A stretch of 59,166 bases of DNA, filler included, from Catajapyx aquilonaris (taxonomy: Eukaryota), in NCBI GenBank assembly GCA_000934665.2. It is 2 parts of 2 records of this genome, joined end to end, with 100 filler letters (N's around TTAATTAATTAA, not from the genome) between each part and the next. Parts side by side here need not be neighbours in the genome. Positions count along the whole stretch, not along the records: positions 1 to 29,524 come from JYFJ02004775.1; 1 more part is not named here. One strand, written 5' to 3'. A program made the translations under genes and the position numbers. Numbering within the stretch: position 1 is the first letter of the stretch; every line of letters starts with the position of its first letter. Of this stretch, positions 3,952 to 43,557 are shown in pieces. Below the pieces are notes generated by a model that worked only from the letters and a program-made list of their open reading frames with translations, was not told where the DNA came from and did not search any database.

Positions 3952-4549
3952 TTATGTAACGTGGATTTAAACAAGCCTTCCAACGATATATAACATTATT
4001 TTTTTGCATCATTTGCCTGGGAGTTGTTTCTAGTCAAACACAAGGGCATATATTAAATAAACGGATAGTACGTGTAATTGAGTCAATCACTTACTTTTGA
4101 AGTGTGACGTGGCCACAAGACAATTATTTTTGCCTTATCCATCGATTCAGTGTGGCCTTGAAGGGTTATTATTGCTCAAAGACATTGAACCTATCACTAA
4201 ATTATTGCAAAAACACCTGCTCAGGAGTTTGACACCTCGATTGATTGGGCTTTTAATGGCGCAACACCAGAGATGGTTACACTTTGCCAGAAAGAATTAT
4301 AGGTAGTACCTTTTGCAGCCAACACTCGCCAACATGACGAACAAAAAGTGAAGAGGTATCGATGCGTTTGACATCTCGACACCTGCAACTGAAGCCCTTC
4401 ATGTGAAGAATATGGATGATGTCCTGTTGCATGCAACCTGAATGTCACAGTGACAACAGCAATACGCATTAAGAATCTTGACCATTGCACACACAGGAAC
4501 TGTTCTTAGTTCAGCCCAAGTCTGCCCGGCTTCATATTTGTAATAAGCC

Positions 4550-6466
4550 ATGGCTCTTGCCGACACCAGCAGTGTCGGACGCTACATTATCTGGTCACTA
4601 ATAGTTTTGGGGTCATCCCATATTCAGCTTCAACGAAGAATCACCCGAATGGAACATGAAACAGGCGTGATTTCAACATTTCTTCGTGGACTGATGCACT
4701 ACCTGCATCCAGACTGCGTACTGGTCTTCGCCCACGATTTTGCCAGACACAACTCTCCAGAGAAGTGGCCGCTGACCCGACTCAATTCGGACTACCGGGT
4801 GGTCTTCCACATGACGGGATGGGCAGAAGGAAGTCCAGACCATCAAATGGAACTGGAGACATACTCCAGTCAGAAAGTAGGCAGATGCATGGTGCATTTG
4901 GTCACCAGTCGTGACGTCGAGTCTTTCGGCCCACTACTGACTCACATGAGACGACAGGTCAGAGTTCAGCTGGACCAAGACATCCTCCTGGTCTGGCTCA
5001 GGTCCGGTGACCTCATGGCCATTCTTCTGAGAGGACAGCTCACTGGGTTCAAGTTCAAACTTGGGTTAGAGGTCACTGCTGCCTGTGCAATCCGTCCTCT
5101 GACCGTGTGCTTCTTTTGCCATGAGGGACACCCCAGATTGGTCAACCTCCCATCCTACCACGGAGATGACACCTACTTCAACACAGGTATAGAGATCTTT
5201 CCGGACATGACCCTTGACCTGGGTGGAAGGGCAATCCGGGTCGCATTTATGAACCGAATGGACTTTGACGAGGTCAAATCGGCCTACATCAAGCCTGGCG
5301 GACACAGAGATCTTGAGAGCCATTTCCTCATCTTCTACTGGATAGCCACCAAGATGAACTTTGTCTACACAACAGACCTGATGCAACCGATTGAGCTGCT
5401 GGAGGAACGTCTGGACAACGGATCGTTTGTTGGATCTGTGGATCACTTGCTGAAGGGAAAGTGCGACGTGGCCTACATGTCCAGAAGCTCTGATGAAAGC
5501 CTAAGGTTCATTGACTTTGGGTATCCGATATACTTCGTGACAATGCGGTTCGTGACAGGGAGACCGCGAGTGACTGAATTGGCTTCGTGGGAAGGAGTGA
5601 TTCGTCCGTTCAGCTACGGCATGTGGAGCCTCATATTTGCAACACTCTTGATGTCTGCAGCGTTCCTGGCAGCGATGATGAGAGAAGACTTTAGGTCTGC
5701 CTTCATGTCATCTTTGTCTCATTGTGCCAGGTCACTCATTGAGCAGAATCCGGAGGTTTTGCCACGTAGTGACTCGTACCGTATGTTTTTTGCATTCTGG
5801 CTCTACCTGGGTATGGTGATGGGTTGCGGATACAAGGAGATGCTGTTCTCCTTTCTGACCATACCCGTGAGAGAAACACTGCCACAATCCTTCCAGGACA
5901 TACCGTCGTCTCCGTTCCAAACGGCAATACCATTTGGCCATTTCATATTTCTGAAGTCAAGCGTGGAAGACGCGAAAATCCAGCTTTTCACAGACTTGTT
6001 TGACAACAGCGAGACTCCTGCAGACGAATTCGAGTGCATGAAGCAGTGCTTGGTGAAGCGAACTGCCTGCATTTCCTTTTCCCTGATCCTGGAAATCGAG
6101 TCGGCCTCGTATGTCGATAGACACGGGAAGGACCTTCTTGTGCTGGCCCCTGCCAGAGAATTCTTCATGTATTCCGGCTCGTCATTTCGGAAGGACTCTG
6201 TCATCCGAGGGACGTACAGCCAAGTGGTCAAAGGTCTCGTGCAAGGAGGTCTGATCGACTATACCTTCAGAGTGAGCGGACACATATTTTTCCGCCGTGG
6301 TCTCGCCTCTGCCAGAAATAAGGAGGCATACACCATAAGTGACCTTGTGAAGCACGATCTGAAGTCTCTCGAGTTCGGGAATCTGCACAGTTCCTTCTTG
6401 CTTATCCCGATTGGCTGGTGCCTTGCCATTCTTGCATTCCTTGTCGAATTGTGTGCTATTGGATAA
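4550..6466 (+). CDS. Divergent ionotropic receptor (IR, iGluR-related chemoreceptor), intronless, 638 aa
   Basis: S1-like GSFVGSVDHLLKGKCDVAY and FIDFGYP; pre-M1 RPFSYGMW; M3-like RMFFAFWLYLGMVMGCGYKEMLFSFLTIP; S2 end LVQGGLID; M4 FLLIPIGWCLAILAFLVE. Confidence 0.88.
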   Translation: MALADTSSVGRYIIWSLIVLGSSHIQLQRRITRMEHETGVISTFLRGLMHYLHPDCVLVFAHDFARHNSPEKWPLTRLNSDYRVVFHMTGWAEGSPDHQMELETYSSQKVGRCMVHLVTSRDVESFGPLLTHMRRQVRVQLDQDILLVWLRSGDLMAILLRGQLTGFKFKLGLEVTAACAIRPLTVCFFCHEGHPRLVNLPSYHGDDTYFNTGIEIFPDMTLDLGGRAIRVAFMNRMDFDEVKSAYIKPGGHRDLESHFLIFYWIATKMNFVYTTDLMQPIELLEERLDNGSFVGSVDHLLKGKCDVAYMSRSSDESLRFIDFGYPIYFVTMRFVTGRPRVTELASWEGVIRPFSYGMWSLIFATLLMSAAFLAAMMREDFRSAFMSSLSHCARSLIEQNPEVLPRSDSYRMFFAFWLYLGMVMGCGYKEMLFSFLTIPVRETLPQSFQDIPSSPFQTAIPFGHFIFLKSSVEDAKIQLFTDLFDNSETPADEFECMKQCLVKRTACISFSLILEIESASYVDRHGKDLLVLAPAREFFMYSGSSFRKDSVIRGTYSQVVKGLVQGGLIDYTFRVSGHIFFRRGLASARNKEAYTISDLVKHDLKSLEFGNLHSSFLLIPIGWCLAILAFLVELCAIG

Positions 6467-7003: not shown

Positions 7004-9486
7004 ATGGCAGGCGTTGTCCCTGGAAATAATTCTGGACGAAAAACTGCCAGGAAGCAATGGACACTGCACGGTAATTAACCCTCATTAAGATTGACAATTA
7101 AACTGGCCAACTAACACTTTTGCTTCTTTTTATCTTGAAGCCGCCACATTAAAAAGGGCATCAGGTTAAAGCGGATGGTAAGCTAACAAAGAGGGGATTG
7201 TTGGTGTGGCTTTTGTGTGATTTGCACCCTTGTGTGTGCCGTTGCTATTAATTGTTGCGTGTTAACAGATGGTCCGCGTGGCTCGCTGAGGAGGCTGCGT
7301 GGCCAGTTGGCGGAGGACGGATGCCCCGAGTCGCAGGTGGTGCTGGCCAAGCAGCTGCTGCAGGACCAAACAGGTACGCATCATCGCGACTTGTCATATC
7401 GCCAGAACTGACTGACCATTCGGTTGCAGATTTAGACAACGAGAGCGACGAAAACGGTCGGCTGGCCATCTACTGGCTGATTAAAGCGTCGGAACAGGGC
7501 AGCCTTGAAGCGTCCGACTTGCTACGAACTTGCCTTGAAACCGGCCGAGGCGTGACGGTACAAAACCAGGTTGATATTCAAGCTTGCCTTGCGATGTCGC
7601 AACCGGAGAAAGTAGCTCGACGGGCCGCCCGGGACCTGTTTTCGTCATTGGCTGACGGTGGCGACTTCATAACGAGCGGGCAGCTGCGGGATAAGATTCG
7701 TGAGTGCAGCGGGCTGGATGGCTGTCCGGCCGTTGGCGGAATGGAGAAGATCACCGAAGCGCACTTGGTTCATTCCGCTTCAATGTACACCCACGGACAT
7801 CTCCCACCATTGCATGGGATGCTAGCTCTGGACGAACCAAGCACAGAGGAAAGTATTGTCGAACGGACCGTGTTTCATCCGTGGAAGGCGGTCAAGTCGC
7901 TTTACCGCAAATCGGTCGAGGTTTTGGCCAAACATGGAGCCAGCGTAGTCGCCATTCCGACATCACAGCTCAAAACATTAGCGCTCCTGGCCACCTACAC
8001 GTTGCTTGGTCCTGAGCGATTGCTCGTCCTTGTACCGCTAGTAGCCTAAAAAAAAAAAANGCTTGTTACGTTCAAGATCCTGTACCGCAGACGTGAGCAT
8101 GAGTCGTTCCAAATGTGGTCCGAATTGTTTCGCAAGTATGCCGAACTGGAGCCTGAAGTTGCCGAGAGTGAATTTGGGCGTCGAGATGTCAAGTCCTACA
8201 TTTGGTATGCGGTGTGCCTTGCGATACATCTAATGGCACGTACATACATTGCTGAGACCTGGATACCGCGTGAGGAGATGGCTGTCGTGTCGCTGGCCAT
8301 GGCTATTCTGGTCCTTCTGGGTTGTCGGGATATTTTCGCTCTTGCCGTTGTTGGGCTTAACATGGCCGTTAGAGCCACCGGACATAACATGGTTGCATCT
8401 CTGCCGCATATTGACATGAGCGAGTATGCGTATGTGGTCAAGTCGCACTGGTGCCACTTGGAAGTCACTCCGCAGTCCATTGCGGCCCTGCTGGTGCCAG
8501 TGGCCATACTGAAAATAGCTGGCAGACAGCCTGTCCAAGCACTCTCTTTCAGTCTCGGAATTGCCTGGTTGCAACTGGCCGGGTCTCTCCTGGAAGCGTC
8601 GGAAACCACTGGAATCATACGCGGCACCATCGCGTTGGTCTCGGTGCTTCTTGTGGTTCCAGCCATCGGTTTGCTCCTGTTGCTGCTGCCTGCCGTGGCT
8701 GTAGGTCGCTACCTGCTTGACGTTGGGATTGCCATTCAGGTGGGTGCCACTGTGGCACTGGTGTCGATCTTGGTTGGATGCACCATATGGGCTCGAAGGC
8801 GCATCCCCTCCGTGGTTATGACAACGATGCAAGTTGCGCTCGGTATTGCTGCTGTTGTTACGGTCATACCAGCGCTTGATTGGTCAATACCGCCCGAATC
8901 GCAATCTGTTACGTGGACCGAGTACCAACAACAATGCCATGAACCAGCTTGGAAGCAGTCATCAATCGCGCAAGTGCAATTAAACTGTGTGAAGTTTGCC
9001 GACACGACGGTGCAGTGGGATGCACATGTTTCCTCAGTGCGTGTCCGCAAGCGTGATAATCCCATTGAGACTATTGTTGGCCACATGCCTTACCCGCTAG
9101 ACTACTACGCTTCATGCCTGGCCAACGAGCACTGCCAGCTGTCAGGATGGGATCGAATCACTTTCGAAATCCACGTCCTCTTGAAGGAAGGGCTGTGGCA
9201 ACAAGAAGTGGCAGCCACTTTGATTGCGCCCCACGGATTCAAAGATTTTGCCCTTCGTCTGCGCACTGGCGACCACATTGAGTTCTCAGGACGCTTGGCC
9301 CCTGGGCTCACCCTCGGGGGAGGCAACCCCGAAATCAACCTGCAAGAGGCGTACTGCGTCGCTTGCAAGGACCGTCAATTACGAGGCTTCAAGACACCGA
9401 AAGTCATGGGCCTTTTCCAAGAAGTGCTTCTCGGACTCAAATCCATCGCAAACTTTGCCTTATATCCGCTCATACGACTGCAATAA
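7004..9486 (+). CDS. WFS1: Wolframin ER transmembrane protein
   Basis: Exons 7004-7070, 7269-7373 and 7430-9486, GT-AG and phase-compatible. Motifs RKQWTLHDGPRGSLRRLRGQLAEDGCPESQVVLAKQLL and AIYWLIKASEQG, multiple TM segments, TWTEYQQQC...QLNC and an OB-like C-terminus. An in-frame TAA plus A-run and N at 8047-8060 is probably a sequence artefact. Confidence 0.9.
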
Positions 9487-10037: not shown

Positions 10038-11982
10038 TCAATAGAATCTTTTCCTGGAGTTCTCTTGGTGCTTCTGGTAAAATATTATTCCAATTATGAC
10101 GCAGGCAAACACTCCCAAAATCCCAAGGATCATCAGGAAAAGAATTTTCAGTCCCGTCAGAGACGATGGCTTTGGATCCGGAATGTGATCTAGAAAGAGA
10201 CGCAATGTTTATTCGCATGTTATTGCAACATTAATTAATTAACGTTACCTCTTGGCGACTCGAAAAATGCAGCTGATGGCGATATTTGCGATCTGTCCTC
10301 CTCGTTTTCCTAGCGTCAATGAGATTACAATGAGTACACAGAGTACGTGAACATACAACCAAGATGTACCTCCTCAGTATTATCCAACTCATAGAGCTTG
10401 ACGGCAATAATGTCATGGTTGTCACTGAGGTCTCCAGTAGCGGCACTGAACCCAAAGTAGTACCCTGTAGGCAGCCTAACCCCACCAACTCGGACGCATT
10501 CCTTCCAAGAGATCTTGCTCTCCACGTCCGTAGTCACAGTGAGGATGTCCCTCTCATAGCGGATGTTCAGATGGGCATCGTAAGGAATATTGCGGAACTT
10601 GGCTTCACACCCTGCTAGCTGAGTGTGCGTCCCATCACGATCATGGTCGTACTGAAGAGTCCCGTTGTTCACCATTGCAGAGATGTACGGATGGTTATGC
10701 TGAACAGGAAAATATTGACTTGAGTGTCATTGAACACGCGGAATGGAATTAACTCACATTATGAGGCCCGTTGTGATTGCTGTAGGTGTCCATTATGATG
10801 GCCAGCCCGTTGAAGTAGTCTTTGCTGCCAAAAATAGGACCAGGAACCATCCTCTCCTTAGCGTACCAGATGGCAAACCCATCGCCATACAAATCCTTCC
10901 CTTTCCCGTGGACGTTGAAGTGAATCTGAAGCTCCCAATTGCGGACCATACAAGGCTGGAAAAATAACGCAGCTTATGGACGGATGTCAGAACAAATCGA
11001 GCTGAAGCTTAATTACTATGTATTATGAAAATGTAATTAGTGAGAGTCGCAAGGCTGATTGCGACATCCTTCAGTCATACGATATTGATCACCAATTGTG
11101 TGCACACAAATGGAGTTTCTGTTTACATTAAATCACCCCTTGCCAGCCAGCATAAATAATTCATTGCTTTTTTTCCATAGCAGACTAGGACGAGGTCAAT
11201 ACTGTGCACGAAAATAACTGAAGTACACGTCGCACAACAAGATAGGCCTATCAGCCACAAAATTCAGCAACCTCAGCATTTCGCAACTTATTTCGTGCGA
11301 CTTAAAAAATGCATTAAAAAAAACAGCACTTAATTGAACTTACAACAGTGTTCCAAAGGGCTCCAGTTTTGCTCTGTTGGTCTGGCGTAAGCCGAACGTA
11401 ATTGTTGGTCACTATTGTACTCCCCTGGAAGTCCCAGTACGGAATCGTCATTCCCGACGCTGAAAAATTAAATAATCAATCATTTAAGAGAACATAATTA
11501 TGTGTTCTATAAAAGTGGGTGGAAGGAAAATATTAATTAAAAAATTATAAAGGTCATTGCCCCCCGAATGTAACATTGGCTAATCACTACTTATTAAACT
11601 AATTAATTAAATTCTTTTTAAAAAGGCCACTAATTAAGAAGGTGTCCGGATGCACTGCCTGTTGCACAATGCGTTCCATCCGCACTCAAGTGCAACCCGT
11701 TTTTTAAAAATCTATGTAATATTCTGGGGGTGTTTCCTTCCAATATTTTCCTGCCAAGTAATATTATTTCCAGCCAATGCTTCTTCGTTGTTGTTTTTTC
11801 TTTCTTTAAAATGCCGGTTATTAATTTCAGCAATTACACGTACACTGGTATGGCTTGACGAGCGAGTGTTCCCTCTTGAGGTAGTCCTTGGTGTTCCACT
11901 GGGCCAGACAGAAGATCCAAGTGGAGCAGGACACCAGGAAGGTCAGCAGGAGCCAGCAGAACGGCCTACTACTCGCCGCCAT
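10038..11982 (-). CDS. LMAN2: L-type lectin VIP36 (LMAN2/LMAN2L family)
   Basis: Exons 11982-11844, 11459-11344, 10955-10758, 10699-10370, 10309-10249, 10189-10038. Signal peptide, YLKREHSLVKPY, GDGFAIWY, DTYSNHNGPHNH, GYYFGFSAATGDLSDNHD, TM helix, C-terminal RKRFY. Confidence 0.95.
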
Positions 11983-14372
<2,390 letters not shown>

Positions 14373-16883: not shown

Positions 16884-18015
16884 TCAGAGGGCCTTTTGCC
16901 TGGTGACCTTCCCTGTACCCTCCTTCTCCTTTTTTCTGGTCGTTGCAGTAGGAGGTGCGTCGGAGCAGTCACACCATGGGGACACCACCTTGTCGCACTG
17001 AAGTTCCACGCTGACCACCGTGACCTTTGCACCGTCCACCACCACTTCCCTGACTCCTGCCACTTTGTAACCCACATTGTGCAGCCCCGTCCTTCTGTCC
17101 CTGCGCCTGGTTGCGTCCCTCTGTCCGTAGCACTTTGCCATGTCCCGCCTGCGCACCGTGCGGTTGTGCACATGACGGAACGAGTTCTCCCGGCCGGTAG
17201 TCATGTTGGCTGGCCGCTTCACCTGGATTAACAATCCAAATTATTACACAGTACGCTGGGCAATCACCGCACTGCTTACCTGCACACTTTTTTCCTTCAG
17301 CCGCACGTAGAACTCGTCATCCTCCAATCCCCATCCCCAGTACTGGTTGCTCATCCCATCCACCGACTCATAGTCCTCTCTGGTAAGCAGCAGGATTCCT
17401 CCGACAAAGTTGGGGTAGTGGTAACGAGGGTGCAGATCAGGGGAGGCCACATGGAAGGCCACTCCCCGCCCAGGATAGGCGTATGAAAGGGAAGGGTTCA
17501 GAGGAAGGAGATCCACATCATGCATTGCAATGTAGTCATGGTCACCACGGCTCAGGAGGAACCCCACGTTAATAAGCGACGCACGGTTGAATCGATACTG
17601 GTCCACCTGGAAATGTCAATAGGTTGAACATGTCCGGATTAACGACTGCGGTGTGTCCGACCTGGTTGAGCACGTAAATGTGATGATCCACCCTCTGCTG
17701 CGCTAGGAATGTGTGCATGTACGGTACGAATGTGAGCAGCTCCTCGAACCTATCCCGGAATGGAACAAGCACGGCCAGCTTATGCTCCGAGGTGTTGCGA
17801 CCGTCCCTCTTGGGTTCAACAGCATCCTTGGCCGGCCCGCAGTTGCATTGCTCTGTAATCAAACAGTGGTTAGCGGCTTTCTATTAGTGTGAACCTGCTG
17901 TTGCAGTACCAATGGCAGTGATGGGCATGAGCGCAACCAGGTAGAAGCCGCATGCAGAGCAGGCCAGCACTCCCCAGAGCAGGCAGTGGAAGCGACGCAG
18001 CCTCCATCCCATCAT
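16884..18015 (-). CDS. B4GALT7: Xylosylprotein beta-1,4-galactosyltransferase 7
   Basis: Exons 18015-17910, 17852-17662, 17606-17280, 17222-16884. N-terminal TM anchor, [59 protein letters not shown]. Confidence 0.96.
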
Positions 18016-18768: not shown

Positions 18769-19013
18769 TGATTTAGCATGTACTTCAAACAAAGGAAATT
18801 ATCTCAATGAGCCGTTCTTCGTAAAGATAGCCGTGCCCTGTTTGCACCGTCTTACGATGGTGACGTAACTGATAAGGCACATATCCAAAGTCCTGTTTTG
18901 ATGTAATGTTGAAACCAACTTTCTCTCTTGCAGGGCAGAAGGGCTTGCGGAAGACTGCGGAGAGGAAGATATTCTTGTAGCGGCTGGTAGAATAGAGAGA
19001 GAAAGAGCCAAAG

Positions 19014-22000
19014 ATGATGGGGCAGATGATGGCCCAGTTGTCTCAGTTGGGTTGGGGTTGGGTCATTTTGGGAGGTGTTGTGTCTGCAATTGTGGTTTTG
19101 AAGCTGTATCTTCGGTTGACCCTGGGAGTCTGCACCAGCAGGCGGAGGATGATAGGCAAGACCGTCATTGTCACAGGAGCCAACACTGGTATGTGCAAGT
19201 ATGTCACAGGCACTGATGCTGGTAGTGACGTTTCAATTGCAATTTGCAGGTATTGGTTACGAAACAGCAAAGGATTTGGCCGCAAGAGGTGCCAGAATTA
19301 TAATGGCTTGCAGAAATATGGATAAAGCCAGGACTGCCTGCGGTGAGTTGCCCTGCTTATTTGTGTGAAAAAGCACTTCTTGTTCCCTTCTGCTATTCCA
19401 GAACGCATAATCTTGGAGACTGGAAACACAAACGTGGTTGTCCGACTGCTTGATCTGACCTCACTGCAGTCGGTACGGGAATTTGCCAACGAGGTTCTCA
19501 AGACAGAGCCCAGACTGGACGTGCTGGTCAACAACGCAGGGGTCGGGGGGATCACCAGGAAGATCATAACTCAGGATGGCCTCGAATACCACATGGCCAC
19601 CAATCACTTTGGGCCCTTCCTGCTCACTAACCTCCTCCTGGGTTAGTAGTCCGTAGCTAACCAGCAGTAGAGTGAGTCTTAAGAGGTTTTCGTTTGATCC
19701 CTTCCCCGGGCCAGGAGCGATGCGACTCTGTGCCGTTTACAAGTCCTATCCTACAAGTAGAACATTGTTATGAAGAGCTAGCACCTAGCAGAGTAATGAT
19801 GTCATACCTAATTAGTGTTATAGGACTTTTTTGCCGCATTTCTTTCCAATTACCCTCATTATTATCCTTTGCGACTTGCTGAAATGTGATTGTGAAGGTA
19901 GAGGCCACAGAACAAATAACTTTGGTCTTTCACTCTGCGGTGAGTCTGTAGTTTTATTGCTGTCCTTATAAATAAGCACTTTAAAAATATTTCCTGATAA
20001 TACTGCGAAATTTTATCCTAAAGTTACGTTATTTATAATTTAAAATGGTATAGAATGTAAGGTGCTTGCAAAGTTACGGTACTTTTTTTTTTCTAATAGC
20101 AGTCTTAGAGAGGCTCATTATGCAAATTGGCTGAAGACATTCCAGAAATTAGGTACTACAATACCGATTGATTGGTGTTCATTTTTGTGCGACTTGTAAC
20201 GTCATACTTGACCATTTCTTTTCCATCGAGGTTAAGGTTCTCTATGTCTGACAGTTGATGTGTAACATTTTTGTGCAAACAATGCAGCTTTGATAAAAAA
20301 GTGATATTGCAACAGTTTGCAGAGTTAGCTAAAAATGTCAAATATTGACACTTTCATGTGCCGTCCCTTTGCTGATTAAAATGTGTAGCTCTAAATATTA
20401 GATGTCTACGTCAGTTACGCAAGGCTCAAAATATATCGCTTACAATTCAAGCAGCCCTGTAATATTACAATGTATTTGTAAGGACTTAGAATTTTGGAGT
20501 GGACATGCTTAACCTAAATGGCTCTGACTGTATTTTATCCATTGACAGGCCTTCTGCAAAAGTCTGCACCAAGCAGAATAGTGGTGGTTTCATCGTTGGC
20601 CCATCTCTTCGCCAGAATGGAGCTGGACAACTTGAATGCAGAGAGAGTTTATGATAAGGCCAACGTGTATGGCAAATCGAAGCTTGCTAACGTCCTCTTC
20701 ACACGGGAACTTGCCAATAGGCTGGAAGAGACAGGTAACGTCCTATACTTATAAATTTCTCGGCAGGCAGTGTCATTTTCACAGGTGATTCAAATTGGGA
20801 CTAGAAATGTTTCAAGCCGTTACGGTTGGTCACGTGATAACAATTTCTAAGATGCTATTCCCATGCGGCTGTGAACATTCTTTCTTAATCGTGCATTTTG
20901 TACTCATCACATTATTTGTGTTCATGCCAATAGGTGTGACCGTGAATTGCCTTCACCCTGGTGTAGTGTACACAGAATTTCTCAGGTACTCACCTTGGAT
21001 AGTGAAGTTTGTGGGAGAGAACATTTTTCGTGTTTTCGCAAAGGTAGAGTCAATAATTATTGGATGTGGGGGACTATATCATTGTTGTGTATTAGTACAT
21101 GGGATTCATGTGATGCTGCAACGTCCGAGCATACAGTGCATAATATATTCCTGTCTACGTAACATGCCTACCTGATGTGTACTGTCGTGGTAACAGCTTG
21201 GTTCTTCAGTTTACAGGTTGCATAGAATGTTTCCACTTTCCAATGATAAAATTCCTAATGATTCTGGGAATGTGTTCAATGTATATCGCATTAGAAACAG
21301 TCATCCTGTGTATGATAATATCTACCATGGCAATGGAAAGACTAACTCCGTCAATGCTAGCCTCTTCAAGCTCTCATTACTGTATGATTCGGTATGATTG
21401 CATGTTACCGAGAGTAAAATGCGAGTGACTATAATATCTGTAGACGGAAAGTGAGGAAACAGTCTGTGTGCATTATGATTCATTGTATTCTAGGCATATC
21501 AGCCAATTGTCTTCACCCTGGGGTTGTGATGACAGAGTTCTTTAGGCATGTGCCTCTCAGTTCCATACTCATGTCACTGGGACGGTTTGTCTTCAAGGTA
21601 TCGTGTGTGTGTCTGCAGGTGTTTGTGTCCTGTTGTTTGCTGCCTGATGTTTTTGTGTGCATTATTGTTATTTTCCTTTTTCGTGTTGCCTTCAGATGCA
21701 TGCGCAATCTCACATAATTGCTGCTAGTTTTTGTTTTCAGTACTATCGCAGATTTTGTTGTTTCAGGGTGGGTTGCATGATCAATCGTTGGAATCATGTA
21801 GCCCAGCCCAGTGTGTGCTGTGTGTCAGTGAAACCCATTGGAAGGATTTTTTTAAACATTTAAAAAGGGAATTTGTTCAAAATAATCGCACTTATTAATT
21901 CCATGCTCAGATCAGGATGAGCTGCGTCAACTACTTGTTGATATCAATTCTTCAAAAACAAGCACTTCTGAATCGATTTCTGATGAGGAGGGCCTGTACA

Positions 22001-22556
22001 ATATGATGCAACTAGTGCATTAAACGTCCAGTGGAGTACCACATCGCTTAACATTACTTGCAATGACTTTGTGCATGTCGTGACTCGGGGCCTATATATT
22101 TCATAAACATTTGCACAATTGATTTTATTTTTCTGATCTTCCCAACAATGCCTTTTATAGGCACATCATTACAAGCAGAATGTTTGTCGCTTGCGCAACT
22201 AGTTGCATTCATGAAATAGGCCCCTGGTGTTACTAGGCTGACATTTTCCTACATGTGACGAGAGATGTAAATGTAATGATCCGACATTTTTTCCAGTCTG
22301 CTTATGAGGGAGCTCAGACCAGCATTTACTTGGCTGTGTCGGAAGAAGTGGAAGGCATCACTGGGGCATACTTCTCTGACTGCAAGGCAAGTCTTCATAC
22401 TTTTAGTGGTACTTTCGTATTACGTATGTCAACGGTTCATTTGTCTTCCAGGAATGTAATCCTTCCAAGACTGCCCAGGATGACGCCCTGGCCAGGAAGC
22501 TTTGGGAGATAAGCGAGCGCTTAGTTGGTCTGGTTCCAAAGGAAACTCATTTGTAG
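19014..22556 (+). CDS. Short-chain dehydrogenase/reductase, retinol dehydrogenase 11/12/13/14-like
   Basis: Exons 19014-19188, 19250-19342, 19402-19641, 20549-20734, [20934-21043 or 21494-21597], 22297-22386, 22452-22556. N-terminal TM, TGANTGIG, LVNNAG, NHFGPFLLT, VVVSSLAH, YGKSKLAN, LHPGVV, GAQTSIYLAVS, ARKLWEISE. Confidence 0.93.
22087..22223. mobile_element. Harbinger-like MITE in an SDR intron
   Basis: GGGGCCTAT...TTTCATAAA / TTCATGAAATAGGCCCC imperfect TIRs. Confidence 0.5.
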
Positions 22557-24558
22557 GGAATCCAAAAAAAAAAAAGAATGAGGGGGGTCTCAGGATTTTA
22601 TCTCCCTAACATTTGGAGGGGTCGGTGGGGTCAAAAAAGAAACGGTTTAATTGTGACAATATAGGAGGTGAAACAGCTGCAGATTTCTTGCTCTCGATAC
22701 AGTGTAATATCGTGCATGTTCTAGTCAGTTGGGCCATTTGTTAGTACCTTTTTAAGCACATTTTGCATTTCAGGCGATGTTATAATGGTTAAGTCGGAGG
22801 TGGTGTAACTTGACTGGATGCTGCCATGTTGTTGGTTTCGTGATGTCAGTGTGTGGAGGACAAAATTAACACTTTGTGAATGGCTTGTTATGCGAAATAG
22901 TCATTCACACCATGTCAGGTTATATTGCGACCGACTTTAGTACAGTACAAAATGCAAGAACTCGATGGTGATTCACCAAATGCGCTGATTTATAGCTTGT
23001 GCCACACCGAAAGGGAAGAAATTACCTAGTCTGCATTCTGCTCAGTACATCAGTTGTAGCGCTATTCTCAGGATAGCTCTCAGTTAGCCTTAATTTCAAG
23101 TCCATAATTGCAAGTTATAGGATACCAGTCAATTACCGATACCGTGTTTTTTTTTTTAAACTCAACTAGATGAGTACTTAGAATTTATTAAGTAGCTTCA
23201 TTCAATATTTTTAATGGCCTAAGCAGCTCAATAATGGAATCACCTGCATGATAAATAGTCACTGCCTCATTTCCACAGGCATGGTTCATATGTAAAACTT
23301 GTTGGCGGCCGTTGTTGATCAAATTTGCACTATGTAGCTACACACACGTTGTTAAGATTGCATCGTAACTGGAGCCAATTATATGTTGCCACTTAGGGTT
23401 GTTAATTGTTGACGGTGTTGAGGATAGCAGAAAATGGTGTCGTTTTTTGGCTGAAGGAAATGCTGAGCGAGCGAGATTGCGTAGAATTAATTAATGTACA
23501 TGATGCCAAGTTTGCTGCATTCACACTCGATCAGAGTGAGAGCAATATATTTCGCCCTGTCTTACCCACTGATGAGCTTTTTGCACACGACGCATTTGAG
23601 ATCAAGACTTTTCCTTTATAACGGACGCGCGTTGACCACCATTTTCCTGCCAGTGAAGGAAATGAACATTCCTGTCATATCTTTGCTGTTCCTCGCTAAA
23701 ATGCTTTTGAGTGGCATTTGCATCGGAGCTTCGAAAAAAAGAAAGAAAAAAATGTTTTTTAGGATATGCTCATTATAATTGGTGGTATGGTTGTCGTGAC
23801 TTCAAACACTGTACGTCTCAATCGGTATTTTATTAGTGCATTGCTGCCAAGTAGGCAAGAGGTATTTTTGGCAATATTTTCATCCCGTGAATTCCACAGG
23901 TTGGTTATTAAGCACTATTTCATGATAAGACAAAACGAAGAACTGTTAAACAATAATAATTGCAACCTATATACACTTGCTGTTTTATACTGTGCTATAT
24001 TTTCCTATGAACCTGTGAAAGGGCATTATTACTATCCAAAACGACTGTGATTTGGTATCTTCCAAAAATATTTTTCCACTTGGTTTCTCTTATTCCAGGG
24101 GTGGGGGGAAGGGGGGGGGAAGGGGTGGGAGGTTACAAAATAATATAATAATAAAAATAATAAATAATAATAATAATAAAACAAGTAATAATGATGGTCT
24201 GTTCATATATGGACAATCATGAAAACTTTACTGGGAATCTTTTACATTCCACTTGTTCCGTGTTCACAATTAGTCAGTGTTGCTGGATAGCTTTAATTTT
24301 CTTTACACAGTAAATACCAAATAAAATATGTTCAGACTTGAAGCATGCTTGGTCATTCTCATTACGTCTTGTTACAGCTTCGGTCAGGACAATGTGCCCA
24401 CTGGCTAATATGCATGTCCGTGGTCCCGTGGGTATACATGGTTAAGAAATGAAATTGCGGGCGTCTTTGCGAATTTTTATTAAACTAAAATTCGCTTCAC
24501 AATTGGCGTGTTAGGGGGGTTTCCATCTTACGTAAATAGGATCAAATTTGAACATTTG

Positions 24559-29524: not shown

Positions 29525-29624
29525 NNNNNNNNNNNNNNNNNNNNNNNNNNNNNNNNNNNNNNNNNNNNTTAATTAATTAANNNNNNNNNNNNNNNNNNNN
29601 NNNNNNNNNNNNNNNNNNNNNNNN
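29525..29624. other. Scaffold gap containing an artificial TTAATTAATTAA linker
   Basis: N44-TTAATTAATTAA-N44; the linker puts stop codons in all six frames. Confidence 0.9.
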
Positions 29625-37670: not shown

Positions 37671-40566
37671 TCTCCCCCCCCCCCCATCAGTTACTCGGTC
37701 CCTATTTATGCCAAAGGTGGCAGCGCTACAGTCACAGGTTACACACCCCCGGCCCAGTCACTTGCACTCCCGAGCAAGAGAAAAAAACAACAAAACAAAA
37801 AAACACCCAAAGGCGCACCAAACAGAACGGCACACCCCAAAAAAATTATCAACAGAGGCTGGCCGTAACCGAAATCAACATAAAACAAACAAACAAGTCT
37901 GAATCCGTCCATAGCAAAAGAAATTGGAATCAATCACTGTATCACTGCACAATGTTTGTACGTCTCAATTAGCCCATCCAACCCCTGAAGCACTTGTAAC
38001 AAGTCCCTCGTCTCCAGGCTTGCCGCAGCCATCGGTACCATAGCCCCTCCAGAAGTGTCGCCAGGCTCCGGAGACGGATCCCTGGTGTCCTGTGGGGAGT
38101 CGTCCACAGTGTATCTTCTCCCAATGGGGCGGTCCGCTGGCCGGTCTTGGGGGCGCTCGGGCAGCACCACAGGCTTTAGGCGGTCCCCGGTTGTCTCTTC
38201 GCATAGAAGCGGCTTGTCGGAATGGCTGCCACCGGTCTTGGGATTCTACTGGGCGGTGGTCGATGGCGCTGTACTCGTCTGCGGCTCGACCCACCGGATG
38301 AGTGGCTGCCCGTTCCCTCTGGGCTGGATGCGTCAGGTGCAGTTACTTCTACTGAGGAAGAAGATTCTTCTTCTCCCTCAGGTACTAGTGGACTTGGCAT
38401 CGTCGTGTCGCTTGTGGCCCCAGACTCTGTACTGGACACCCCACTCGATGCCTCTTCGTCTTCCGTTGGGATGTCCTCAGAGACTTCTTCGGACCCTAGC
38501 TCCCTTGTTGTATGAGTGGGAACCTCTGACAGCAAGGAGGGGAAGAAGGAGTCGGGTGAGGGACTGCCCTGGGATGAAGGGGGTGACCGACTTGGTCGCT
38601 CCCAATGTGGGGGTAGCAACGCCGGCTTAAGGCGGATGAAGTGTACAATCCGCTTGGCCTGGGAGTCTAATGACTCTATTGCGTAATTCACTTCCCCTTT
38701 GCGTTCTACCACCTTGTATGGCCCTACCCAGAGTTTCTGTAGCTTCTGTTTGTGTCCCCGGCGGAGCCATGACAAGGTATGCTTTCCCCGATACAGTTTT
38801 ATCAAACTGCCTCTTCTGTTTATTCCTTGCTTTTTCTAATTTCTCTCTAACCTCAGAATACACTTTCTTCGTCCTTGTTCCTACCTCTCTGACGTAGGTT
38901 TGCATGTTTTTTCCCTCCCCTAGGGGTCCCCTCAGAAGGAGGTCCTCTGGGAGGCATGCTTCCCTCCCATACATCAAGAAATAAGGCGTCTTTGATGTGG
39001 AAGCCTGTACATGCGTCCGATAGGCGAATAAAGTGAGGGCGAGGCGTTCGTCCCAATTTGGACCTTCTTCACTCAAAAGGGCGCGAAGTAGTAGAAGGAG
39101 GGTATCGTTAACCCTCTCAACCATACCGTTCCCCATTGGATGGTCTGCGCTACTTCGTAATTTCTTAATGTCCAATTGACGACATATTCCAGAGAATACC
39201 TCACTCTCAAATTGTGTCCCTTGATCAGATAGTAACACACCTGGGATGCCGAAGCGGCATACAAATTTCCGTACGATCACCTCCGAAACAGAGACTGCAT
39301 CAACACGACGGAGAGGAAATGTTTCTGCCCACTTAGTGAAAAAGGCAATCAACACTAGAATGTACTTGTTCCCAGATGGGGTTTCAGGTAACGGTCCAAT
39401 GATGTCCATCCCCACTATTTGCAGTGGTCCCCCGGCTTCAATAGGTTGGAGAGGAGCCCTGGGAGACTTCCGTGGCGACTTAACCGCCTGACCAGTTAAA
39501 CACTGACTACACCATCTTGTAATCGTCCGAGGGTATTCTCGAGCCCATAGTGCCCACTCGCTAGGTTTTCATGGACCAGTTCAAAGATATACCAGCCCTT
39601 GTGAGTGGGTACTACTGCTTCCTTTTTGGAGTCTTTTGTGGTGTGATACACTATTCCATCCAAGCACACAAGGTTCGACAGATGTCGTTGCCAAGTCTTG
39701 TATATCCCAGGACTCAACGGTTTCTTCTTGTCCAGAAAAGCCCTAAGAGCCCTAATTTCATGGTTCTCTTGTTGCCACATGGAGAGAAGATTCTGGCCAA
39801 CAAGAGTCCCTACAATCCCTGACTCAACCGGGTTAATCTCGACTTCTTCAGCCACTGCCCGTGACAAGGCATCGACATGTTGCATTTTCTTTCCTGGCTG
39901 ATAAGTAATGTGGGGGTGATACTCTTCTAACTGAAGGACCCATCGGGCGAATTTGCCCTTAGGGTCTTTCATACCCCTCAACCACTGGAGCGGGTTGTGG
40001 TCCGTGACTATGACAGATGGTTCCCCGTATATGTATGGCCTGAATGTCTTCAGCGACTGTATCACACCGAGTAATTCCACTCAGCTGGCGAGAGAAGCCT
40101 GCTGTAATATACCAACACTCTTTCGTTGCCACCTTGAACTTGGCTGAGTATATTCCCAATACCATAGCCACTTACATCTGTATAGATCTTGAAGGGCGCA
40201 TCGAACTGAGGGTAAGCTAAGATCGGAGCGGAGCTCAAGGCCATTTTCAACTCGTCAAACGACTGCTGTTGTGGCTCCCCCCAATGATAAGCGACTCTTT
40301 GATGCGTCAGCTCATGGAGAGGACGCGCCACTTCTGAGAACCTATGGATGAAGCGCCTGTAGTAAGAAGCCGTACCCAGAAACGAACGCACTTCACGTAC
40401 CGTTTTAGGTATTGGGAAATGCGTAATAGCTGAGACTTGATCAGGGTCGGGATGGACCCCTTGCTGGCTAACGATATGACCCAAGTACTTTATTTCGGGC
40501 AAAGCGAAATGACACTTGGACGGTTTCATTCTCAGGTTGTACTTCTCCAACCGCAGGAAGACCTGC

Positions 40567-41176
40567 TGTGACGCCAGGTTGAAGGAAGGTTATTTGCATG
40601 CGACACACGGGAGAGTACGGCCAGTATTGCACTGAACCGGACCTGGTTCGGGCTTCCGCCAACCTGGTATGGCTGGTGAGAGGCACTTCGTCTTTTGGTA
40701 CGGTCAACCTCTCATACTGTACACGACCAGGTGGTACAGATCCCTGCGGACCTGATCGTGTAACTGAATAGGTCTTTACACGGCTACCACTTGGTGAATG
40801 GTTGGTGGTACAGATTCCTGCGGACCAACCATTTGCCTAGCGGTACCGACACCCGTACTGTATCTCAGTAATGACAACAACCACTTAACTCATTGAACAT
40901 GGACAGGGCAGATAGTAGGGTCATTACCAGCTCGGGAGGACCGAACCTCTCGCACCGCTGGCTGCCGACCGACTGACTGTCCTGACTCAAAGCACCTTTA
41001 TTCAATACCTCGGTTTGGTCTTCGTTGCTACAACATTGGTTTGGTCACAACAAGGTAACCTAACGATTCTAATAATACACAAAATGAAACTATAGATACA
41101 GTCACTAAGAGAGAATGCATGGAGACAAACAATTACAAATAACGTAATTACAGCAACAATTAGTCCATGCATTACA
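40567..41176. mobile_element. Solo LTR (610 bp) inserted in the Gypsy RT
   Basis: TG...CA termini; 4-bp TSD CTGC; removing it restores EEHLKRLEQ-VFLRLEKYNL. Confidence 0.88.
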
Positions 41177-43557
41177 CTGCTCTAGGCGCTTCAGGTGTTC
41201 CTCGAAAGTAGAGAATACCTGAATGTCATCGAGATATATGAGGCACGTCTCCCACGTCATTCCTGCTAACACTGGCTCCATCAACCTCTGGAATGTCGAA
41301 GGAGCATTCACCAGACCGAAAGGTATCACTGTGAATTCGTACAGGCCGCCACCAGGAATAGTGAAAGCGGTTTTCGGCCTGTCTCCCTCCGACACTTCCA
41401 CTTGCCTTATCCTGCCGTTAAATCCAATGTGGAAAAGAACCTAGACCCAGAAAAAGCGTCCAACGAATCATCTACACGAGGAAGTGGATATGCATCAATG
41501 CGGCTTACCGCATTCACCTTACGATAATCCACACAAAATCGAATACCACCATCCGACTTTGTGACCAAGCAGATTGGACTGGCCCAAGGACTGTCACTTT
41601 TTGTTATTATCCCTTGAGCCTCCATCCCTCGTACTTGTTCCCTGATGATGCGTTTTTGCGCAGGTGCCGTCCGTCTGGGCGGTTGCCTATTAGGGGGGCC
41701 TCCCCTGTGTAAATTCTATGAGTGGCGGCGGCCGTACGTCCTAAGTCGTATGGTCCCGTGCTGAACAAATGCGCGTACTGGCGCAGGAGAGACCCCAAGG
41801 TTCTACCTTGAGATGTAGTGAGATATGTTCCCTACAAGGCTGCCTCAACCCATGGTGCTTCCATGACAGAGGACCCAGCCGCATGTTCCTCAGGCATATG
41901 AACCAACTCATACGCCCCGGGTACTGCTAACTTCTCCTTTCCGGCAATCACCGACCGGAGCCAAACACCCCAACACTGTCGGCCGGTATCACCGAGTTCC
42001 CCTTCAGAGGGTTACTCACACGGATGGGTACCACCACATTGTCGTCTTCTTTGGTTGGGCTTACTAAGCAACGTGCTATTAACAAGTCATGACGCTGCGC
42101 TGTTTCCCACTGTGGATCGACCACCCCTAGTACAGGAGGGCTATAACCCCCCTTTAGCACAAGACACCCCATAAATGTAGCTTCGGTTCTCCCGGGTATC
42201 ACCGTCCTCTCCAGTACCTTAATAGGTACCCCTATCCTTTCACATGTGCCCTTATCCTCAATGGATCGATCTGCCTCGGGGGATGCACAAGTAAGCACAT
42301 CATTCTGGTAATCCACCACACAACCAGACTTCTTTAGGAAGTCTGTTCCCAAGATGATAGGAAACAGGGGTTTCTTAACCACCAGAAACTTAGTGTGGAA
42401 AACCTTTCCCCCAATTGTTACTGGCAACGTGACCGACCCCATCGGCCTCATTATTCTTTTATCCCCCAGACGCAGTACTATCTGCTCTGGCTGGAGATAG
42501 GGCCTGTCCTCCCCTTGAACCTCTTTTACCACCACCTGTATACCAGCCACCGAAAAGCTAGCACCACCATCCAAAAGAGCTGAAAACTTTTTTTCGCAGA
42601 TGGATGCCAACGTGGTGGTTGGAGCAGTTTCAGAACGGGAGTCCGTGTGGGGCCCTTCTTTCAGTTGCGTCGGGGAACGCCCCCTTCCTCCGGCGCTAAA
42701 TCGTTTCCCGGTGACCCCGGTTTCTTCTTTTCCCACTCTTTCAATGCTGCTGCCAACTACCAACAATCCTTCTTCCTGTGTCCAACTTTATGGCAATAGA
42801 AACATTCTACTTGCCCCTGTTTGTTTGGCTTTGGTGGACGTCCCAGTTTTTACTGCGGGGCTGCTGGCTGCCCCTCGACTACTCTGCCTTCCCCGACCGG
42901 CCCCGGACGGGGGTTTCCCACTGGAGAATTGTCCTGACACCGCCCCCGCAGGGGTAAAGGTCGCCTCTGTAAGACCGACATTGGCCTGCCACCTCTCTAT
43001 CCCCTCCTGGAGCTTGGCGGCTTCTAACACTGCCGTCAACCCGGAGAGATTCTGAGTCAACACCTGGTGTTGTGTTCTGGGAGGTAGACTTTCAAACAAC
43101 CTGGTACATGCCAACTGGGAAACCATTTCGGCACTAGCCGTAGGAAAGACCTCTTTATAGAATCTTTAAGGCGGACGACGAACCCATCAAGAGTTTCCTC
43201 ATGTCGCCTCCGCAAGGAAGCAGCTTCACTCTGCTTCAAAACCAATGGGGTAATAGGCTCACAAGCCGTCCCCAATGCTTGGCTTACTGTTGCATAAGTG
43301 TCTCCCTCTGTAGTGGTTAATTGTTTCTACCATTGAAACGAGTTTCCTTCCAAAAATAGAGGGAGCCTAGCCAACTTCTTTCCATCATCCCACTCCATTG
43401 CAGTGGAATATAGATCAAACAGATCCCTCCAGTCATGGTAGGACCCAATCCCAGCATACTTAGGTATCGGAGGGATACCCCCTGACGCCATGCTGTACTC
43501 TCAGATGCCAAACAAAATACCACCAAAACCGGAGCGGTTTGCTCCACACAATTAGAG

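Follow-up and report, generated by a model that had tools for sequence, protein, structure and literature searches.

On the + strand of the window analysed here, a stretch of 59,166 nucleotides (nt) of the Catajapyx aquilonaris genome (assembly GCA_000934665.2), positions 19014-22556 hold a gene for an RDH11-14-like, membrane-anchored short-chain dehydrogenase (SDR) built from seven coding exons. Exon 5 of this gene is present in two versions, 5a and 5b, whose inclusion is probably mutually exclusive and which would exchange the lid over the substrate site of the enzyme. The splice borders of the gene are all canonical, the exception being a GC-AG intron after exon 6, and a tblastn search of the window returned no second gene of the SDR family.

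Exon 1 (19014..19188) starts with an ATG, encodes an N-terminal hydrophobic anchor and the beginning of the TGANTG(IG) cofactor motif, and ends in phase 1 at the donor ACTG/gtatgt (the slash marks the border). Exon 2 (19250..19342; 93 nt) runs from phase 1 to phase 1, exon 3 (19402..19641; 240 nt) encodes the NNAG motif, and exon 4 (20549..20734; 186 nt) encodes the catalytic Ser (VVSSLAH) and the Tyr-x-x-x-Lys motif (YGKSK) and again ends in phase 1. The two versions of exon 5 follow, both running from phase 1 to phase 0 and separated by an intron of 450 nt (21044..21493). Exon 5a (20934..21043; 110 nt) encodes (G)VTVNCLHPGVVYTEFLRYSPWIVKFVGENIFRVFAK, which takes in strand F as well as the PG motif and the lid, and yields isoform A of 332 amino acids (aa), while exon 5b (21494..21597; 104 nt) encodes (G)ISANCLHPGVVMTEFFRHVPLSSILMSLGRFVFK and yields isoform B of 330 aa. 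Helix G is encoded by exon 6 (22297..22386; 90 nt, phase 0 to 0), and exon 7 (22452..22556) carries the coding end, with the stop codon TAG at 22554-22556 and a 3' untranslated region (UTR) that extends past 22700. All of these exons lie on the + strand, and the last intron (22387-22451, 65 nt) is the GC-AG one, with the donor AAG/gcaagt.

RNA evidence for this structure came from one public run, X1, whose library type is unrecorded and whose contigs were placed on 18900-22700. Its contigs skip introns (19642-20548, GT..AG, and the GC..AG intron after exon 6), therefore the run is RNA-derived. Spliced contigs confirm three junctions (2-3, 3-4 and 6-7). Contig 2 (443 nt, all letters accounted for) has the last 15-16 letters of exon 2 as its loose end, continues through exons 3 and 4 by way of junction 19641-20549, and stops at 20735. 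Contig 4, with a length of 1687 nt, extends over 22450-22700 and a further 1.3 kb or so, and joins 22386 to 22452, a cut that reads as GC..AG after a shift within a 3-letter ambiguity; the GC-AG intron is thereby confirmed. Exon 1, whose start codon is predicted, and most of exon 2 are in no X1 contig. A further X1 contig of 242 nt reaches 18981, 33 nt 5' of the ATG, and then continues with 17 letters that are absent from 18900-22700, which may reflect a 5' UTR splice or a different transcript.

Exon 3 alone scored 36.6 bits against the Pfam family adh_short (PF00106; cut-off 26.6) and the homologue P0038 scored 130.5 bits; exon-5 peptides taken alone gave no match to adh_short. The product contains the motifs TGANTGIG (TGxxxGxG), NNAG, VVSSLAH and YGKSK, followed by PGVVYT in 5a and PGVVMT in 5b, and the passage on classical SDRs in PMC10889806 lists TGxxxGxG, NNAG, Ser, YxxxK and PGxxxT. 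Of the 4138 candidates that exon 3 drew from a protein collection, 4014 were relatives, with identities of up to approximately 65%, and the window's own protein was not among the 4014. The best 120 of these 4014 relatives, from arthropods, molluscs and vertebrates, mostly bear automatic names of the form 'retinol dehydrogenase 11/12/13/14(-like)'. At full length, the closest relatives were P0086, an unnamed, transcript-derived protein (57% identical), and the Periplaneta americana 'retinol dehydrogenase 14-like isoform X1' (P0132; 56%). The gene product shares with the RDH11/12/13/14-like animal SDRs a length of about 320-335 residues, an N-terminal anchor, the TGxxxGxG/NNAG/S/YxxxK/HPGxxxT motifs and a C-terminal helix of the form ...EGAQT..YLA.... 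By its motifs and Pfam match, the product is therefore predicted to be a classical SDR of the RDH11-14-like group, the group name being taken from the automatic names of the relatives, which agrees with the RDH-like dehydrogenase of the original prediction.

That prediction had also placed exons 5a and 5b, with their translations and borders, and all of these proved correct to the base. Exon 5a lies between the acceptor ...ccaatag/G and the donor AAG/gtagag, and exon 5b between ...attctag/G and AAG/gtatcg. Both copies are open, each completes the split Gly codon at the end of exon 4 (phase 1), and each ends in phase 0. Their lengths differ by 6 nt, equal to two codons, and both are 2 mod 3, so that double inclusion or skipping yields early stops and presumably decay; the predicted loss of frame with both exons or with neither was confirmed, with premature stops in either case.

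The two exons had been called homologous, and this holds on several measures. Their peptides are identical at 16 of 35 aligned residues (46%), and their local BLOSUM62 score of 82 compares with 17.8 +/- 3.7 in 2000 shuffles, of which the highest reached 47 (z = 17). When each exon was searched against the 59-kb window with tblastn, its sole non-self match below an expectation value (E) of 0.7 was its counterpart (E 1e-6 and 3e-5). The likeness is concentrated at the start, as had been claimed for a conserved HPGVVxT core followed by a diverged loop: within the core NCLHPGVVxTEF, 11 of 12 residues are identical between the copies, whereas in the tail, aligned from the end, only 2 of 13 are. According to the portion of Pillmann et al. 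2011 (PMC3228551) that sets out how mutually exclusive exons are recognised, they are similar in length, agree in splice pattern and reading frame, and are homologous. Exons 5a and 5b are neighbouring internal exons of similar length, with the same splice pattern and frame, clear homology and no stops. A candidate third copy at 22195-22296 (102 nt abutting exon 6) was rejected, as it contains a stop and its score was reached by 23 of 2000 shuffles; the stretch is in frame with exon 6 and faintly 5b-like (ATSCIH... ...RHFFQ), either by chance or as a very decayed third copy.

A tandem pair of this kind might be produced by an assembly that sets two alleles, or a collapsed paralogue, side by side. 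The window does contain gaps elsewhere, with 316 N in total, although the nearest of these is at 29525 and there are none inside the SDR gene. Alleles would be nearly identical, whereas the two copies are 46% identical in protein. Furthermore, the introns flanking 5a and 5b show no alignment to one another, and the three introns around the exon 5 copies have no repeats elsewhere in the window. Because the flanking introns neither align nor recur and the gene is free of N, the pair is taken as the outcome of an old duplication of exon 5 in tandem, and the chance of an assembly artefact is negligible.

An old duplication may leave behind one copy that works and another that is no longer spliced in, or only rarely and unproductively. 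The substitutions between 5a and 5b bear on this. Among the 12 codons of the core, differences affect 5.0 of 7.8 synonymous sites as compared with 3.0 of 28.2 non-synonymous ones (Fisher p = 0.006, counts rounded), and the non-synonymous differences all fall in one codon. Over the first 21 codons the figures are 11.2 of 14.8 synonymous and 12.8 of 48.2 non-synonymous sites (p = 0.002). Synonymous change in the core is near saturation while the core itself is kept, therefore a copy that had died long ago would look different, and both copies show purifying selection on the core. We also simulated neutral drift in 100000 copies, counting as survivors those that jointly retained an open frame, no fewer than 11 of the 12 core residues and the AG/GT borders. 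Joint survival was 0.4% of runs at 20% changed sites, 4 runs at 30% and 0 at 45.5%, which means that with at least 30% of sites changed no more than 4 in 100000 copies persisted in the state of 5a and 5b, with 11 of 12 core residues kept and borders and frame intact. An open frame of 34-36 codons taken by itself is no rarity: it stayed open in 24-45% of drift runs, which speaks for a leftover copy. The length difference of a whole number of codons argues against such a copy. Compared with 98 relatives over 37 exon columns, the best match was 18 for 5a and 20 for 5b; neither copy appears degenerate, and these matches are about as close as that of 5a and 5b to each other.

The ends of the RNA contigs offer a second line of evidence. 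Position 20735, at which contig 2 stops, is exon 4 plus one G, and this G is all that the beginnings of 5a (GT...) and 5b (GC...) have in common. The 5' end of contig 4 comprises 3 letters before exon 6, of which two fit the AG of the intron and one misfits the genome. The intron before exon 6 ends in CAG, exons 5a and 5b both end in AAG, and the extra letters of contig 4 match this shared AAG tail. On both sides, then, the contigs break at the last letters common to 5a and 5b, which by the logic of k-mer assembly hints that both forms are present in the X1 sample, without amounting to proof. One spliced form, or a mixture of spliced and unspliced RNA, would place the contig breaks elsewhere, and this speaks against one copy being a mere leftover. 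Within the intron between 5b and exon 6 we also noted an X1 contig of 246 nt (depth 3.8) that is unspliced at 21845-22089, the rest of that intron being uncovered. It has stops in six frames, no Rfam match and an unremarkable fold (z -0.6), and it occurs just once in the window. The contig may represent an intronic transcript, a poison exon or a repeat whose expression comes from another place.

Several results weigh against two working, exchangeable exons. The original prediction had suggested looking for the pair in orthologues, and it was not found among the relatives surveyed, which comprised proteins and metagenome loci and at full length were no closer than 57% identical. Our isoform survey covered 20 homologue clusters (formed at 90% identity), including multi-isoform RefSeq genes of crayfish, flour beetle, cockroach and snail, and aligned 77 of the 90 listed members (44 of 57 and 33 of 33), the 13 omitted being fragments of <200 aa or fusions of >600 aa. 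In contrast to the pair in the window gene, two versions of exon 5, and hence an exon-5 swap, were seen in none of the 20 clusters of RDH11/12/13/14-like relatives. Of 169 pairs of proteins with an identity of 90% or more outside the segment, the sole pair to drop inside it (to 46%) was that of the window's two isoforms. A scan with exon 4 found two exon-5-like segments in none of 32 metagenome loci, of which 29 are intron-less bacterial-type genes and the other three are contigs with introns whose short length allows no decision; a single exon-5-like segment was found in 11 of the 32 by tblastn and in one more by motif scan. An exhaustive search with 5b through 1.84 billion representatives gave 6 matches at E <= 0.001, all restricted to the core motif and the best at 60% identity. 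Exon 5a extended to 41 aa by its in-frame flanking codons had no candidate in the protein collection that shared three words with it. Two variants in relatives were considered as exon swaps, and neither qualifies. In Periplaneta americana, isoforms X1 and X2 (proteins P0083 and P0132, the latter being X1) diverge right after the exon-5 equivalent, which ends ...FAK, and X2 has another C-terminus; the split after FAK agrees with an exon border located there in that species too. In Acanthoscelides obtectus, variants P0018/P0139 differ within the lid segment, where 7 residues (VPAPFSW) form an indel. At identities of 57% or less, the lack of a pair in relatives is absence of evidence and not evidence that the pair is young.

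On the same side of the balance is the RNA. The sequence of neither 5a nor 5b is in any X1 contig, a coverage gap that says nothing on expression, and the argument from contig ends draws on a single run of low depth (3.6 and 12.2). In the exon tail, non-synonymous change (0.62) is about equal to synonymous change (0.70), which fits diversification and relaxed constraint alike. One of the copies may also have been silenced recently, and different substrate preferences of the two isoforms, plausible as they are, are something that we purely infer. The absence of both exons from the contigs, the failure to find the pair in any relative examined and the lack of clear purifying selection on the tail would each fit a leftover copy. 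When set against the retained core, the intact borders and frame and the contig ends, they leave that explanation decidedly unlikely, and that both exons are used, one per transcript, is the reading we follow below.

What such an exchange would do to the enzyme was considered on an AlphaFold model of the relative P0086 (57% identical to the window product), built with 44 homologues and reaching a mean predicted local distance difference test score of 93.7; the model is of P0086 and not of the window isoforms. The equivalent of exon 5 in P0086 comprises residues 223-259, up to a nearly invariant Lys 259. It is modelled as a strand at 224-229 (VTVNSL), the H-P-G at 230-232, a loop with a short turn, and a helix at 246-257, and its confidence of 77-81 is the lowest of the fold. 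Helix G, encoded by exon 6, comes directly after the segment, and an N-terminal helix spans residues 2-28. As judged on the P0086 model, the product has a Rossmann-type SDR fold, and the solved folds nearest to the model include the mycobacterial SDR 3rd5 (E 3e-22, template-modelling score 0.84 by target) and light-dependent protochlorophyllide reductases. The premise of the original prediction, that the exchanged segment is the substrate-binding loop, is supported by this model, in which the exon-5 equivalent comprises strand F together with the PG motif and the lid. The part of PMC10449848 on HSD17B13 gives its substrate-binding loop as P218-T239, beginning at the Pro of the same PG motif, and describes such loops as flexible and as the most variable part of hydroxysteroid dehydrogenases. 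In HSD17B13 and other SDRs, as here, the loop starts at the PG-motif Pro after strand F, and here this is the swapped part; the difference is that loop diversity there arises from separate genes, whereas here it would arise from one gene by splicing. Bird orthologues that are at least 90% identical elsewhere retain only 67-83% identity in the exon-5 segment. On the model, then, the swap would keep strand F and the PG motif and replace the lid helix.

Given that SDRs have their substrate-binding loop directly behind the PG motif, as that same part of PMC10449848 states, changed substrate handling is the simplest expectation. The swap might instead tune another property of the lid with both exons in use, such as membrane or lipid contact, dimer contact, opening rate, stability or regulation. 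Such a role is suggested by the N-terminal hydrophobic anchor of the product and its counterpart, the helix at 2-28 of the P0086 model. The protochlorophyllide reductases among the nearest solved folds point the same way. There, the corresponding region is involved in contacts with the membrane and within the oligomer as well. Both tails have the same net charge (+2, counted on the translations) and differ mainly in bulk and polarity. The position of the segment in the substrate-binding loop counts on the other side. A role of the lid other than in substrate handling is a serious rival, to which we grant a limited chance, and the evidence separates neither reading from the other.

We next turn to how the use of both exons in one messenger RNA would be avoided. 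Steric exclusion was ruled out by the 450-nt intron between 5a and 5b, and incompatibility of U2- and U12-type splice sites was rejected, as the donors are GTAACG, GTAGAG and GTATCG and a search for TCCTTRAY-like branch sites gave none. The original prediction had called for the introns to be folded in search of competing pairings, and here it drew a blank: complementarity was not above that of shuffled sequences, with duplex energies matched or beaten by 52, 23 and 55 of 60 dinucleotide shuffles, and the 13 short imperfect inverted pairs in the introns were unremarkable. No Rfam family was found in 18800-22800. Of the candidate devices there remains the reading frame itself, in that inclusion of both exons or of neither would shift the frame, introduce early stops and lead to loss of the transcript by nonsense-mediated decay. 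The use of the frame to separate homologous mutually exclusive exons is a well-known device that is common in arthropod genes. Mechanisms of exclusion, and validation by junction reads across the other exon, are treated in Hatje et al. 2017 (PMC5740500), in the sections of which relevant here 60% of human clusters have lengths that are not divisible by three, making joint inclusion non-productive. The pair described here resembles known clusters with frame-shift exclusion in that homologous exons encode the same structural element and have lengths that are not a multiple of three. It differs from the validated clusters in those sections of Hatje et al. 2017 (PMC5740500) in that the proof there comes from junction reads, whereas the case here is made from sequence criteria.

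We propose the following account. In an RDH11-14-like gene, exon 5 would long ago have been duplicated in tandem, which left the gene with two interchangeable versions of the exon, and each mRNA would carry exactly one copy. Isoforms A and B would share the cofactor site and the Ser-Tyr-Lys centre and differ in the 35-37 residues from strand F to helix G; within the exon-5 segment, the part belonging to the catalytic core would be retained and the lid helix replaced. The choice between 5a and 5b would presumably be regulated, and its likeliest use would be to provide two enzymes with different lids, hence with different substrate range or access, by tissue or stage. Considered alone, mutually exclusive splicing of 5a and 5b is likely. 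The whole statement, in which the two exons swap the substrate-binding lid and function differs with the lid, we hold to be somewhat probable. A more specific version, in which the one SDR gene yields, in a tissue-specific manner, two enzymes of different substrate classes (retinoid or visual-cycle versus steroid, ecdysteroid or lipid-aldehyde), is doubtful.

Exchanges of a homologous exon that keep the catalytic machinery also occur in pyruvate kinase M1/M2 and in the exon 3 variants of acyl-CoA oxidase 1; these enzymes are of different folds and families and their exon exchange is established by experiment, whereas the present case is read from sequence. Both are vertebrate isoforms that alter regulation or substrate range. 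The SDRs are among the largest enzyme families, and animals usually diversify them by gene duplication. Among the papers listed by a literature search, judged on titles and the openings of abstracts, we found no description of a mutually exclusive exon pair in an SDR gene, and the main texts of PMC5740500, PMC9741552 and PMC8373072 name among dehydrogenases only a GAPDH control. The novelty lies in the host enzyme family of a known exon device and not in a new principle. If the more specific version with two substrate classes is correct, this would be the first described splicing-programmed switch of a substrate loop in the SDR superfamily. If one gene makes two lid variants by exon choice, it offers a compact natural loop-swap test of how far the lid between strand F and helix G sets SDR specificity. 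There is also a consequence for annotation, as gene models that take one exon would miss an isoform and those that take both would break one.

The SDR gene shares the window with several other features. Upstream of it on the + strand lie an open frame of 639 residues (4547-6463), which has no Pfam match at E <= 0.001, a wolframin-like gene (7252-9486) with WSLR and WEF-hand matches (Atlas WC-rich/WCOB) and an NMNAT-like cytidylyltransferase exon (12531-12899). On the - strand are an L-type (legume-like) lectin gene (10325-10723), a beta-1,4-galactosyltransferase exon (17244-17612) and, downstream of the SDR gene, an element resembling a long terminal repeat retrotransposon (38176-42787), in which the open reading frames for an integrase (rve) and a reverse transcriptase RNase H are split over several frames.

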